Shown here: piece by piece, positions 1,268-60,804 of the stretch
How positions within the stretch are numbered: position 1 is the stretch's first letter
Layout of the letters: the number at the start of each line of letters is the position of its first letter
Assembly: GCA_964016885.1 (NCBI GenBank)
Contig: OZ024745.1
Location: forward strand, 101,246,001-101,310,000
DNA length: 64,000 nucleotides
Reading direction: 5' to 3'
Source: Eledone cirrhosa
Taxonomy: Eukaryota
Notes under the pieces: generated by a model
What the model was told of the DNA's origin: nothing
The model's database searches: none
Seen by the model: only the letters and a program-made list of their open reading frames with translations
Translations under genes and position numbers: made by a program

Positions 1268-1791
1268 TAGGATTGGTGCTCTGAAATAGCGATGTATACA
1301 TGAATGTATACATAATATATTTGGCAATACACCGTATGTTTAATTAAAAACATTTTGAAGACCTTACGTTATCATTTTAAAGTAGTGATTATGTCACTTC
1401 TTTTCGGCGAAAGAAGACAGAGAAGCTAACAGTCAGTTCCATGCTGTTTGGCAATCATCAGAGCTACGTATATTGCCAAATATATTACGCATACATTCAT
1501 GTATACATCGCTATTTCAGAGCACCATCCTCATATTTAATTTTTGCTGGACCAGCAATCGGTCTGTATAATCAGATCCAGATTATTACTGGAATTCTATA
1601 AGAATCCAGCTTCTATAATTTTCGCCGGAAGAGGGCAGTACGTAGCTCTGATGATTGCCAGACAGCATGAAACAGACTGTTAATTTCTCTATCTTCTTTC
1701 GCCGAAAAGAAGTAAGTGACATAGTCACTACTTTAAAACGATAGCGCAAGGTCTTCAAAATGTTTTTAATTAAACATACGGTATATTGCCA
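1268..1791. mobile_element. Non-coding HHR-bearing element (~315-nt monomer family) with inverted duplication, in (TA)n
   Basis: 1268-1470 is the reverse complement of parts of 1469-1791. The + copy begins and ends with TATTGCCA (1471 and 1784; period 313). Homologous to 10110-10380 and 21721-22330. Confidence 0.8.
1644..1686 (+). ncRNA. Type I hammerhead motif, degenerate copy (inverted partial copy at ~1424-1466)
   Basis: AGCT-CTGATGA-TTGC CAGACA GCAT-GAAA-CAG A CTG-TT. Same family as the intact copy at 22125. Confidence 0.6.
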
Positions 1792-2077
1792 TATGTATAT
1801 ATATATATATATATATATATATATATATAAAACATTGAAAGAGATAGAAGGCTGAAAAATGCCAAATGGACTGTAAGATGAGGTATCGAAAAGTAAAAGT
1901 TACCTGGTGATCTTTGCTTTCTTGTTCTTCTTCTTTTATCTGTCCAATATCTTTTATCTAGCCTTGGGTTACGATGAAAGGATCGTAAGTGATTAAATGT
2001 TTTAAACACTCTTTGATTGTTATTTATAATATATATATATATATATATATATATATATATATATATATATATATATA

Positions 2078-2262
2078 TGCAAAAGTTCTATTTAAAATTG
2101 TTGGGATACAACAAGTAAATATTTTTATAACTGATATAAAGCACTCAACAAATTTTTGGAGTAGATATACGATATTAATAAATGGTTTAATGTGGTATCC
2201 CTGAAATATGTATAATGAAATAAATATGGTTTTATAAATATAGTTTCCATTTATTAATATCG
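2078..2262. mobile_element. Short PLE pLTR-derived fragment (family also at 10385-10567, 13503-13668, 13965-14097, 44032-44187, 57575-57930)
   Basis: Shared AAATATGGTTTTATAAATATAGTTTCCATTTATTAATAT motif, local inversion, flanked by (TA)n. Confidence 0.7.
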
Positions 2263-2913
2263 TATATATATATATATTTATATATATATATATATATATA
2301 TATATATATATATATATATATATATATATATATATATATATATATATATATATATATATATATATATATATGTATACTTCCATTGCAATATACAAATTAC
2401 ACACGCAGACCGAATCAAAGACACAGACGATCACGAAAAAAATATACATCACAATCCAACACACTAGTACGTACATAAATAAACAAAAAATCAAAACAAT
2501 AACAACGACAATAGCAATGAGAACAATAATGACAACAAAAGCAATAATGACAGTGGGTTTACATGTATATATGCATATGCACACACACATATATGTCCAC
2601 ACAGATAGATACATACGCATATATACATAATACATACAAACATATATATATATATATGAAAAACAAGGGGAGAAGAATACTGCATGGTTGCACATGGATT
2701 ACATATTATAAAATTAGTCCCTCATCAGTGATTTGCCAACCATCATTGGTATTTCATCGCATTAAAAATCAGATACCTCAGGTTGGTGCAAGCAATAACT
2801 AAAATAAGCTATTGGGACAAGTGAAACGCGTAAAGCGAGTGAGACAAGTAAACAACAGAAGGAAAAGCAAACCGAAGGATATATATATATATATATATAT
2901 ATATATATATATA

Positions 2914-3880
2914 TTGTTATACTTTGGGAGGGTCATGTTGCCAATAAGAAACATACGCAGCACCAGTAGCTTTCACTTCAATTTATTATAATAAATTTAT
3001 AAATTTCCTGTAGGTTTGTTGGTTCCACAACCAGATGATTGTTTATATATTGTCAAAGTTCGTTCGTCACACATTCTGTGAGGGAGGTCTTGGGGGGGGG
3101 GGGGGGGGGTATATGTTGCTAATGGGTGTTTTTGTGGAGGTGTCTGGTCTTTCTGCTATCTTGATGTTGAGTTTGTGTTTATCTGGGGCCCTTCTGGGTT
3201 TGTGGGCTGGTTCACCTCTGGGGGTTGTGTCAATGAGCATTGCACTCTGGTGTCTATTGCTGTCGTTTCTCATCACCCGTACCAGATTCGCAATCAGTGT
3301 GTTGATTTTGGTGTGGTCCGAGGCGGCTGGGTTTCGGTGGATCAGATATTTGGAAGTCGTGGGTTTGGCATAATGGGAATGAAGGATTTGTTTTTTTTGT
3401 TAAATCACAGAGGCAGTGAACATAAATGAGCTCCAACCAAAATTGAGTGGAAGGCGTGGGTGGAGCAGCAACGTCGCAGCTTGCGGTTGAGGACAGGATG
3501 AAAACACACACGCACATAGAACAAACAACCAACCAGTAACATAAGCACACAACACACACACAAAAACAAGATGGCGTAGGACAGAACAAAGGAGAAGCAC
3601 AAAAACAAAGAAAAGAATCCCCAGTCACTGAAGAGGTCACAGAATGTGTGACGAAAGAACTTTGACAATATATAAACAATCATCTGGTTGTGGAACCAAC
3701 CAACCAACCGGAAATTTATAAATTCCTAAATTTATAAATTTATTATAATAAATTGAAGTGAAAGCATCTGGTGCGTGTGTTTCTTATTGGCAACATGACT
3801 CTCCCAAAGTATAACAATATCGGTTTCAACACCCGTTTTCAGATAAAGAATCTTGCTAAACAAATTCAGAAACGAAATAT
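2914..3880 (-). mobile_element. Truncated Penelope-like element (non-Naiad lineage): RT-thumb fragment between inverted pLTR copies
   Basis: Minus strand ~3250-3375 encodes HYAKPTTSKYLIHRNPAASDHTKINTLIANLVRVMRN (PLE thumb-like). 2914-3081 is inverted at ~3636-3818. Same terminal motif at 18540-18600, 42715 and 55960. Confidence 0.7.
3624..3666 (+). ncRNA. Type I hammerhead ribozyme
   Basis: GTCA-CTGAAGA-(G)GTCACA GAATG TGTGAC-GAAA-GAAC-TT-TGAC. Stem II covaries with the 42906-42947 copy (GTTGCA/TGCAAC). Confidence 0.75.
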
Positions 3881-4011
3881 ATATATATATATATATATAT
3901 ATATTAATCAATGAAAAAAGAGTTAGTTGATTTGTAATCAACTGATTCTTATATATAACAGATGCCAAGCACTCAACGGTATATATTTATCCGGAGTATT
4001 ATTATAGTAAT

Positions 4012-58234: not shown

Positions 58235-58519
58235 TCTTTTCACTCGGAGAATATAAAATTCCCGAGTTCGAATTACGAACTGACGCTATTCAAAATTGTT
58301 CCCGAGATGAGAATGAATGATGTGGAAGCAATTCTGTCCAGTGCCGTGTGTAAAGATAGAAGCAGAGGCAGGGAGGTCAGTCTACTACCACTATAAATAG
58401 CAGCAGTCAAAACGACCAGATTTTATCTCGATATATATATATATATATATATATATATAATAAGCATGTGTGTCCGACCTATGCCAGTGTGGAAAGTGAA
58501 CCGAAAATCATGTATATAC

Positions 58520-58912
58520 ATAAGCCTAGCGAAAACCTTAGATGCATACACAAGAACTCCTGCCCTCTCCTATAGTTTTCAAAAATTCACTTAAGAATAT
58601 TAACAAGAAGATGTACAACCTTTCCTCAAACCAAGCTATTTTTTCATAGAACAGCCCCCTACTATAATACAGCCTTACGCAATATCGGATTCTCTGAGAA
58701 TATATCCTACTCTCCAGCAAAAATGTTTTAAAAACCCTAGAAATAGAGAGAAAGTCTGGTTCTCCCCTCCTTTTTCATTAAGTACCAAATCAAATGTTGA
58801 AAAGAAGTTTTTAGCTCTCATAGATACACACGTCGAACCAGGACACAAATACTGCCAGATCTTAGATCGCCATTCGATCAAAATTGTACACTCCTGTGCC
58901 GGGAACATGTAG
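58520..58912 (+). pseudogene. Naiad PLE thumb/linker remnant
   Basis: IVFKN...NLSSNQAIF...YYNTALRNIGFSENISY...RNREKVWFSPPFS...SIKIVHSCAGNM (frameshifted). Confidence 0.8.
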
Positions 58913-59054
58913 TTACGTCTCCTGCATAAGCATATGTCACCGGTGCTTTGAGAAAGCAACACCAAATATCTGCCCCGGGCATATCAATGAATCGAAACAT
59001 CAGGAGTCATTTTTGTTTCCTCACGTTTTTCTGGGGTTTTTTCTCTTCGACTTC

Positions 59055-59117
59055 TTGCTGTCTGATGAGGTCATAACTTTTGCATAACAGTTATCACTGA
59101 AATACATATAACAGCGA
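59055..59117 (+). ncRNA. Type I hammerhead at the 3' pLTR
   Basis: TTGCTGT-CTGATGA-GGTCATAACT...AGTTATCACT-GAAA-TACATA-TA-ACAGCGA. Confidence 0.8.
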
Positions 59118-59787
59118 TTATGAATAATTGAAATAAATTCAAACCTGTTGACTTGAATGTACTTCATGGTTATAACAATAGTGTCAGTGATTAACTAACA
59201 CAGACTTTACCTAATATATATATATATATATCCATTTCTCTCTCTGTCCCCCTTACTCATCCCCTCTCTCTTTCTCCCCCCTCTCTGCCCCCTTAACACT
59301 TTCGTTTCTTTCACCCCCCCCCACTCTTTCTCTCTCTTTACGTCGTTCTCACCGAGAGTAGTTGTATTCATCTTAACTCTCTCACTGTTAATAAGGCCTT
59401 TCTTTTAACTTCGTCTCTTCTCGACCCTCGGTTATTTACTTACATGTGACATTGTCCTGTTTCCCCCTTCTTATCGGTATGTTTCTTTTCTTTTTTCTCA
59501 TTTTTTTCTCTCCATTCTTCTTTCTTTCTCTCTCTTTGCTAGCACCTCTTTTTCGTCTTTTCTTTCCCTCATAACTTGTTGATAAATTATGGGCGCGCTA
59601 CGGATAGATGTATTGTCTATAATGCGCTGAAACATCCGTGACCCGAAGTAGACAACTGATGAAGGGAAAATGTCTATCTCTTGTTTGTGTTCCCTTAACT
59701 TTCTGACACTCGTTATCAATAACCACGCAGCCCAGTCCCTCTCAATATATATATATATACATATATATATATATATATATATATATA

Positions 59788-60804
59788 TAACAATATATTT
59801 AGAAACACACAGATACATGCGGACACACACATATATACATGAATGCATCCGCACCCAACTGTGAGTTAAGGGTGCCAACTTCACCGATGTTGCTCAATGA
59901 ATGACTGGGACAGACCAATTCAGTTGAACTAGACTGAACCAGTATCAGAGTTAAAAATACATTATGAAGAGAGAAGAAACATTTAGATATAATTAGTAAT
60001 AAAATGTATCATACCTAAACTGCTCCTAAATTCCTCGACTACGTAGTTTCGTGGCATAAACAAAAACAATATATCATAAAGATATAGAGTCCTTGCGAGG
60101 TCTGCCGACTTATCAAGAGGATACCTCATTTTACTAGTCTCAAGAACGCGTCTACACGACGTGAGAAAGAATCCCAAAAGGCGGAGGGGGAGATAGTCAC
60201 GCGATATAACGGTCGAGAAACAGAGCTAAGCCTCTTATAACCCCGAAGAAAATACCACGGAGGCGGAGGGGGCATTTATATCGAGGCCGTAGAAGAGGTG
60301 GTGAAGAAGGCGAGAAGTATGAGTAATGGAAGCTTTCCAGCTGTCCCCACACTTCAAAGATTGCTCGACCAGAGGGAGTTATTAACAATATATTTAGAAA
60401 CACACGGATACATGCAGACACACACATATATACATGAATGCATCCGCACCCAACTGTGAGTTAAGGGTGCCAACTTCACCGATGTTGCTCAATGAATGAC
60501 TGGGACAGACCAATTCAGTTGAACTAGACTGAACAGCTCTGTTTCTCGACCGTTATATCGCGTGACTATCTCCCCCTCCGCCTTTTGGGATTCTTTCTCA
60601 CGTCGTGTAGACGCGTTCTTGAGACTAGTAAAATGAGGTATCCTCTTGATAAGTCGGCAGACCTCACAAGGACTCTATATCTTTATGATATATTGTTTTT
60701 GTTTATGCCACGAAACTACGTAGTCGGTGAATTTAGGAGCAGTTTAGGTATGATACATTTTATTACTAATTATATCTAAATGTTTCTTCTCTCTTCATAA
60801 TGTA
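59788..60804. mobile_element. 595-nt HHR element: 1.25 monomers on - strand plus an inverted partial monomer on + strand
   Basis: AACAATATATTTAGAAACACAC recurs at ~59789 and ~60383. The + copy starts at ~60535. Near-identical to 44331-45162. Confidence 0.88.

Follow-up and report, generated by a model that had tools for sequence, protein, structure and literature searches.

Two kinds of published system are of particular relevance to the DNA described here. The first is the type-SGC hammerhead ribozyme (HHR), which Eckert 2023 (PMC10085705) named, showed to cleave and searched for in RefSeq; in the available text of that paper it is found in metatranscriptomes only, and the genomes of known organisms yielded no such RNA save one weak type-GCS case. 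The second is the Penelope-like element (PLE), whose protein nicks both DNA strands and primes reverse transcription at a pair of internal sites, which delimit a “tail” (Frangieh 2024, PMC11167929), and on which animal retrozymes have already been reported to depend (PMC7229834; bioRxiv 10.64898/2026.07.22.740005). Here, we analyze 64,000 nucleotides of the octopus Eledone cirrhosa (contig OZ024745.1; filed as G000:C5:101246001-101310000), hereafter the window, which is a mosaic of insertions separated by (TA)n runs. Genome searches were made against the 3.0-Gb assembly, and loci outside the window carry L-numbers (e.g., L146, L148, L216, L267, and L340). Next to L216, an exon-like frame had five protein matches, all five in Octopoda (Octopus species and Argonauta).

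We read the insertions as pseudo-long-terminal-repeat (pLTR) remnants of PLEs together with closed retrozymes that lack open reading frames (ORFs), the latter likely copied into (TA)n by PLE enzymes; within this reading, retrozyme families O and V carry a type-SGC HHR with a predicted kink-turn-braced, multi-pseudoknot fold. We assign the reading as a whole a probability of roughly 0.7. A preliminary description of the window had reported many type I HHR families in (TA)n and interpreted them as retrozyme-like parasites mobilized in trans by Naiad PLEs. Its observation was largely right and its interpretation partly so: most of what the window contains is PLE biology already known, to which new retrozyme families are added.

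Hammerhead motifs in the window

Run on the window, a stem-scored type I descriptor gave 21 matches at a score of at least 18; in 60 local dinucleotide shuffles, it gave 0.8 ± 0.8 (maximum 3). By contrast, a type I descriptor restricted to strict monomers proved inadequate, with 5 matches and the minimal and dimer-type forms missed. Our hand census, which drew on descriptor runs and reading and to which degenerate and permuted cores were added by hand, holds 43 HHR cores under 17 family labels, with about 10 cores degenerate. A (TA) run of at least five repeats lies no more than 300 nt downstream of 38 of the 43 cores, compared with 36.5% of 5000 random positions, and families G, K, L, and M have UUGANAA cores. 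The dense HHR population, the more than ten families, the (TA)n association, and the UUGANAA-type cores reported earlier are therefore all borne out. Calling every motif type I is wrong for four of the 43, whose blocks run in the order S-G-C (2721-2792, minus strand; 30811-30882, 50784-50855, and 59592-59663, plus strand); this non-circularly permuted form, the most unusual feature of the window, went unnoticed in the preliminary description. In family M, the motif is core-like with a displaced stem I, and its status as a hammerhead is uncertain. Of the 153 matches in an Rfam scan of the window, the 150 that were listed include no hammerhead and are microRNA matches driven by microsatellites.

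A further minimal type I HHR family occupies 31190-31390, with a degenerate core near 31281, and ends in CATA repeats rather than TA. Long inverted-repeat insertions lie at 56224-56520, 52856-53250, 32726-33107, and 29764-30240, the first of which recurs at other loci; these hairpin insertions have no recognizable HHR core.

Closed units without open reading frames

In eight unit types, successive copies are joined head-to-tail at a constant junction: K (595 bp), F (555 bp), A (315 bp), N (~486 bp), O1 (526 bp at L267; ~530 bp in other copies), O2 (513-519 bp), O3 (621 bp), and V2 (~546 bp). Other SGC tandems have periods of 470-706 bp. The longest stop-to-stop frames span 80 amino acids in K, 47 in F, 122 in O1, and 115 in O3 (52 from a methionine). 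Families A, F, K, N, O, and V2, being non-coding tandem units with one HHR per unit, are dispersed, ORF-less, non-LTR retrozymes with units of 315-700 bp; the type I HHR of described retrozymes is found in A, F, K, and N and is replaced in O and V. Their representatives in the window, together with an element of family V1, which stands outside the list of closed units, are as follows.

2643-2878, minus strand: family O1 retrozyme, 5'-truncated; SGC HHR at 2721-2792, predicted cut after 2772; 83.8 bits
50705-50910, plus strand: family O2 retrozyme; SGC HHR at 50784-50855, predicted cut after 50804; 87.4 bits, this copy itself being in the model; tandem elsewhere at a period of 513-519 bp
30475-30935, plus strand: family V2 retrozyme; SGC HHR at 30811-30882; the unit closes at ~546 bp (downstream sequence of L340 re-enters at window 30475)
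59232-59745, plus strand: family V1 element; SGC HHR at 59592-59663
44269-45160, plus strand: family K retrozyme, 1.4 units of the 595-bp closed unit; type I HHR with UUGAUAA core (44409, 45004)
59790-60802, unstranded: family K inverted and tandem insertion; cores at 60116 (minus) and 60646 (plus)
56595-57070, minus strand: family F retrozyme, 555-bp unit; older copy at 5258-5767 (minus)
21715-22325, unstranded: family A retrozyme, inverted insertion of the 315-bp closed unit; older copies at 1266-1820 and 10110-10380
58080-58430, minus strand: family N retrozyme, ~486-bp closed unit; core at 58229

In the family locus searches, where the best 40 of 229-3393 candidates were scored and some loci overlap, a sense PLE ORF lies upstream at 0/28 K, 0/23 A, 0/23 F, and 0/23 N loci, as against 10/19 G and 7/19 I loci. 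Among SGC loci, 7 of 162 have a sense PLE ORF upstream, and the five inspected, as well as the two in the window, are separate insertions.

These data bear on the model proposed in bioRxiv 10.64898/2026.07.22.740005, which, extended to this genome, would make all HHR units truncated pLTRs of autonomous PLEs and derive the tandem arrays from local unequal crossing-over. A pLTR origin is indeed true for B, C, D, E, G, I, P, and U. Where A, F, K, N, O, and V2 are concerned, the model is largely refuted: closed junctions recur across many contigs, that of F is present in further samples' contigs as well (one of them under a second organism code), an upstream ORF is absent at 97 top-scoring loci of K, A, F, and N, and adjacent units of the F array at L148 are no closer to each other than average (8.4 vs 7.8 differences). 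As an account of the whole population, we consider it very improbable. The preliminary description had named a purely pLTR origin of all families among the outcomes that would overturn it; instead, the units of A, F, K, N, O, and V2 are closed, and their copies contain no ORF. Its retrozyme-like population is thus real for these families. About half of the HHR families, on the other hand, amount to simple remnants of pLTRs, and Naiad is not the partner.

A type-SGC hammerhead in families O and V

In family O, the cleavage block (S) comes first, followed by GAAA (G) and then CUGAUGA (C). A descriptor for all six block orders, applied to 1.12 Mb of loci enriched by O-family searches, returned 32 distinct SGC, 25 CGS, 1 CSG, and 1 SCG matches, whereas each of ten shuffles gave 0-1 SGC matches; the diverged V family surfaced in this run without being sought. 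A model built from 24 copies has exactly four strong matches in the window (60.8-87.4 bits; the next reaches 13.2). Genome-wide, fixed-spacing SGC patterns matched 14,194 and 25,677 times, compared with 45 and 347 for reversed controls, from which we estimate about 25,000 type-SGC copies. Elsewhere, the patterns gave 3 metagenome and 7 prokaryote matches, all without pairing, and 0 viral matches; because the patterns are octopus-specific, this is no evidence of absence elsewhere. Loci L187, L387, and L427 belong to an SGC subfamily in which the motif is displaced by one base, the linker is 3 nt long, and the kink-turn strand is altered.

The motif spans 72 nt and reads, from 5' to 3', Q5' (4 nt), P5' (6 nt), 3 nt, III' (5 nt), H17, I' (7 nt), a 4-nt linker, Q3' (4 nt), 11.1, GAA, III (5 nt), a 3-nt bulge, GA, 1 nt, P3' (6 nt), I (7 nt), the core, and 10.1. 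Across the 24 copies, which were hand-picked as intact subfamily representatives, 94.0% of 551 cells are paired, compared with 73.8% after shuffling and 31-49% after sliding, and 0 of 500 shuffles reach either the paired share or the compensatory count. Two-sided compensatory change occurs in 18 of the 23 pairs (6/7 in stem I, 4/5 in stem III, and 5/6 in helix P), and the 10.1-11.1 pair occurs as four types. In an unselected set, 104 of 122 distinct anchored motifs, falling into 29 single-linkage clusters, keep at least 14 of the 17 pairs in P, III, and I. Altogether, covariation in the aligned copies shows that the subfamilies preserve the 10.1-11.1 pair as well as helices I, III, P, and Q. 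A multi-pair stem II between blocks C and G is missing; one covarying pair takes its place and is continued by the strand-swapped helix Q. The conserved fold of the SGC retrozymes is, on these alignments, well supported, and ribozyme activity is predicted from it.

Kink-turns are built from a 3-nt bulge followed by G.A and A.G pairs between two helices. The III-P junction agrees exactly with this consensus in 17 of the 24 copies, with G at position 2n in those 17, U at 2n in the other 7, and A at 1n in all 24; most rows had been retrieved with the GA of the bulged strand as an anchor. We predict that this junction forms a kink-turn strut. In the O copy at 50751-50830 and in similar ones, comparison of O1 with O2 suggests covariation in a further hairpin upstream of helix Q and in a helix of 4-5 bp formed with the nucleotides that follow the core.

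Could the S-G-C order be real and selected, and yet give an active ribozyme only as a strand-swapped dimer or together with PLE protein, rather than as a single-chain pseudoknot? The minimal HHRs of PLEs are described as weak when monomeric and as working in dimers (PMC7229834) or with protein (PMC11167929), helix P abuts stem I without a linker, which is sterically demanding, and nested folding of O1 and O2 yields only P and III. Against this, the kink-turn-like motif would fold P back toward stem I within one chain, and SGC ribozymes with similar zero-length links exist, of which the tested constructs cleave co-transcriptionally (PMC10085705). We regard this alternative as unlikely.

Still less probable, in our judgment, is that the motif is a hammerhead-derived but no longer cleaving RNA handle, conserved for binding or priming by the PLE reverse transcriptase (RT). 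In every family mapped, RT starts ~70-135 nt beyond the predicted cut on its 3' side, stem II is weak, and cleavage is dispensable for PLE insertion in vitro (PMC11167929), all of which a handle could accommodate. The motif nevertheless retains an intact core in the order S, G, C, with CUGA, GAAA, U16.1, and a non-G H17 (23/24) kept across representatives. CUGA and GAAA did serve as search anchors for most rows, but no fixed spacing was imposed in the searches that first revealed O and V.

Insertion anatomy and probable mobilization by PLEs

The mapped families share an insertion anatomy in which 5' ends are variable, 3' ends fall at two fixed sites, and insertions sit between TA runs. The fixed 3' ends are at q595 and at q168-172 of the next unit in K, q355/q477 in F, q232/q258 in A, and q355/q403 in O3. 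In inverted insertions, one arm uses the first of these ends and the other arm the second in 25 of 25 readable cases (7 K, 9 F, and 9 O3), with one further atypical K case. Two-site 3' ends match the priming at a PLE “tail” that has been demonstrated in vitro (PMC11167929) and thereby link retrozyme spread to that mechanism; from this match, we judge it likely that PLE machinery acts on the retrozymes in trans.

The F arrays, which reach ~10 units and occur on several contigs, contain array-specific variants common to both arms; other differences outside A/T runs are mostly confined to single units, and there is no ladder of similarity between adjacent units. Local expansion explains this pattern less well than does the copying, in one step, of a multimer or circle with homogeneous units, and circle and multimer fit it alike. 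A period-3 pattern seen in the array at L148 was dropped as a product of alignment shifts in A/T runs.

We propose that a PLE RT/GIY-YIG dimer would nick both (TA)n strands and prime at two internal sites, giving rise to tandem and inverted arms. The template would be an uncut multimer or a ligated circle, because the copies run through the predicted cut site, some of them several times. In the SGC families, the ribozyme is predicted to cut after H17, whereupon helices Q, P, and III would hold both monomer ends together and favor ligation into circles. That an active SGC HHR of new architecture, with a kink-turn strut and a strand-swapped stem II, clamps the monomer ends in this way, drives circle formation, and has here its first chromosomal home in an animal, in ~25,000 copies spread over many subfamilies, is in our model a proposal with slightly better than even odds.

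Several points count against the overall reading. On the side of mobilization, the loci examined revealed no autonomous partner tied to a specific retrozyme family, HHR cleavage is not needed for PLE insertion in vitro (PMC11167929), and 8/9 Xenopus retrozyme dimers did not cleave (bioRxiv 10.64898/2026.07.22.740005). Since only the best 40 candidates were scored, an ORF-linked copy of a “closed” family could also escape. On the side of the fold, the canonical stem II comes down to one pair, which is frequently A-U or G-U and is not formed in 3/23 representatives, so that cleavage may be slow, and the outermost stem I pair is unpaired in 13/24 rows. Moreover, hand-picking intact rows inflates the pairing, and related rows are not independent events. 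Mutual information with average product correction over 99 motifs was dominated by lineage, with predicted pairs making up 3 of the top 30, and was rejected as a structure test because it failed to separate structure from lineage.

PLE coding sequences and pLTR families

Every PLE ORF fragment that we saw places the endonuclease (EN) after the RT and has Hydra-, Neptune-, or Nematis-like motifs; clades are named here by motifs rather than from a tree. Naiads, by comparison, have an N-terminal endonuclease, lack a canonical HHR, and are known in cephalopods from remnants only (Craig 2021, PMC8557442). Judged by domain order and motifs, with no Naiad query run, the window showed none of the Naiad traits of N-terminal GIY-YIG, CxC, and DKA, and the Naiad coding element of the preliminary description is not borne out by the C-terminal endonucleases and clade motifs of the fragments seen. 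Its remark that many HHR elements lack any ORF is true locally, but families B, C, D, E, G, I, P, and U are pLTRs, that is, the 3' ends of ORF-bearing PLEs. Families H, J, L, and M represent the 3' portions of longer elements, which have long unique upstream sequence and no ORF within the stretch followed. The “Nematis” label was rejected for YRDD elements, whose motifs are those of Hydra.

The ORF fragments at 7215, 10832, 15007, 22794, and 58604 match one another in tblastn, and family C stands at the end of the Hydra 3' untranslated region in 12 of 15 genomic copies. The PLE-related features of the window are listed below.

38711-42600, plus strand: broken Hydra-clade PLE with RWK, DKT, CxCX5C linker, and C-terminal EN (all at 38830-40830); family E HHR in the inverted arm (38789, minus) and at the 3' end (42433, plus)
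7007-9590, plus strand: Hydra PLE fragment; ORF 7215-8435; degenerate family P HHR near 9455
10381-11290, plus strand: Hydra ORF fragment and inverted family C arm; core at 10556 (minus)
15003-16330, plus strand: Hydra-type ORF end; degenerate HHR of family U at 16245
22342-25054, plus strand: Hydra-type PLE fragment; family D HHR at 24945
59062 and 21602: further family D HHRs, the first after an ORF fragment (58522-58909)
17970-18597, minus strand: Nematis-like PLE ORF end with a short CX2-5CxxC linker; its pLTR is family B
3628 (plus), 42943 (minus), 55847 (plus): family B HHRs, pLTR of the Nematis-like PLE
13264-14269, unstranded: family G pLTR pieces of a Neptune PLE, interleaved with C pieces; UUGAAAA cores at 13451 (minus), 13886 (minus), and 14146 (plus)
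57130-57417, plus strand: family I minimal HHR, pLTR of a Neptune-like PLE with a sense ORF upstream in 7/19 loci; second copy at 27714-27899
45720-45920, unstranded: family L hairpin, truncated inside the HHR
26040 and 51041 (family H), 31107/31114 (family J), 12314 and 25284 (family M): further members of these families

Family G led to a near-intact Neptune PLE at L146, which has a 775-aa open frame with DKG, a long CX2-5CxxC linker, and a C-terminal EN; relatives of this element have RVT_1 and GIY-YIG domains. Together with the two-end anatomy, this near-intact protein makes trans-mobilization of the retrozymes by PLEs directly testable. Several near-identical Neptune copies with open frames of up to 775 aa lie at L143-L146, a young family and a candidate trans partner.

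At 13264-14269, a composite of G pieces, a TA run, and a C piece recurs both as tandem and as inverted repeats, which looks as though an element had been copied along with an insertion nested in it. Loci L172-L194 and L216-L234 of families L and J are mostly hairpins with 5' ends inside or just before the ribozyme, which suggests RT stalling at the folded HHR, a pattern that the choice of query biases.

Other features of the window

A SINE-like (short interspersed nuclear element-like) repeat of ~190 bp is abundant and has a tRNA B-box-like stretch on one strand; it resembles the tRNA-derived SINEs of octopus.

4000-4195, 12617-12749, 19408-19799, 29354-29538, 48395-48580, 55001-55447, and 62329-62522: copies of the ~190-bp SINE-like repeat

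A GC-rich fragment at 54342-55010 includes an RT-associated-looking frame on the minus strand (54581-54931), with a weak DUF7409 match only.

Comparison with known systems

The coding elements compare most closely with the Hydra, Neptune, and Nematis PLEs of Craig 2021 (PMC8557442), with which they share a C-terminal GIY-YIG, a canonical HHR in the pLTR, (TA)n insertion, and a tail at one end. The tail measures 28-170 nt in octopus and 30-40 nt in those PLEs, and Hydra, which that paper records from few families of mollusks, is abundant in this genome. Naiads are alike in (TA)n targeting and have remnants in Octopus (PMC8557442 supplement), whereas their N-terminal endonuclease, DKA, and lack of a canonical HHR are not features of the PLEs in the window.

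Metazoan non-LTR retrozymes (PMC7229834; bioRxiv 10.64898/2026.07.22.740005), whose main texts as available do not cover octopus, likewise consist of non-coding tandem units with one HHR each, range from monomers to multimers, and occur alongside PLEs. Unit size is 315-700 bp in octopus and 51-972 bp in Li et al. 2026 (bioRxiv 10.64898/2026.07.22.740005). The octopus retrozymes, known here from DNA, differ in their strict (TA)n targeting, their PLE-type two-end and inverted anatomy, and, in O and V, an SGC rather than a type I HHR.

A type-SGC HHR has not been reported from an animal in the titles and abstract openings surveyed in an open-access library, although Lunse 2017 and the supplement of PMC7229834 could mention octopus HHRs. 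With HRIMA-1 and type SGC as described in PMC10085705, the octopus motif shares the S-G-C order, an intact CUGAnGA, GAAA, and UH, stems I and III that covary, a further helix that may hold the outer ends together, and a short linker leading from stem I toward the stem II side (3 nt in HRIMA-1 type SGC and 4 nt in octopus). It differs in that stem II consists of one pair only, which may explain why the motif was overlooked, and is extended by helix Q with a strand lying upstream, and in that the strut helix P originates 5' of block S and connects to stem III via the predicted kink-turn, whereas the interaction helix of HRIMA-1 lies 3' of block C; the term “kink” does not appear in the text of that paper or of its supplement as available. 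Descriptors built for type I thus undercount the ribozymes of genomes. Unlike the metatranscriptomic SGC RNAs of Eckert 2023, the octopus motif, known here from sequence, is chromosomal, lies within a retroelement, and is present in an estimated ~25,000 copies. Not until 2023 was an RNA fold shown to be permuted non-circularly, and then in environmental sequences of unknown host; the animal family supplies such a fold with a host, a genetic context, and a large covariation set.

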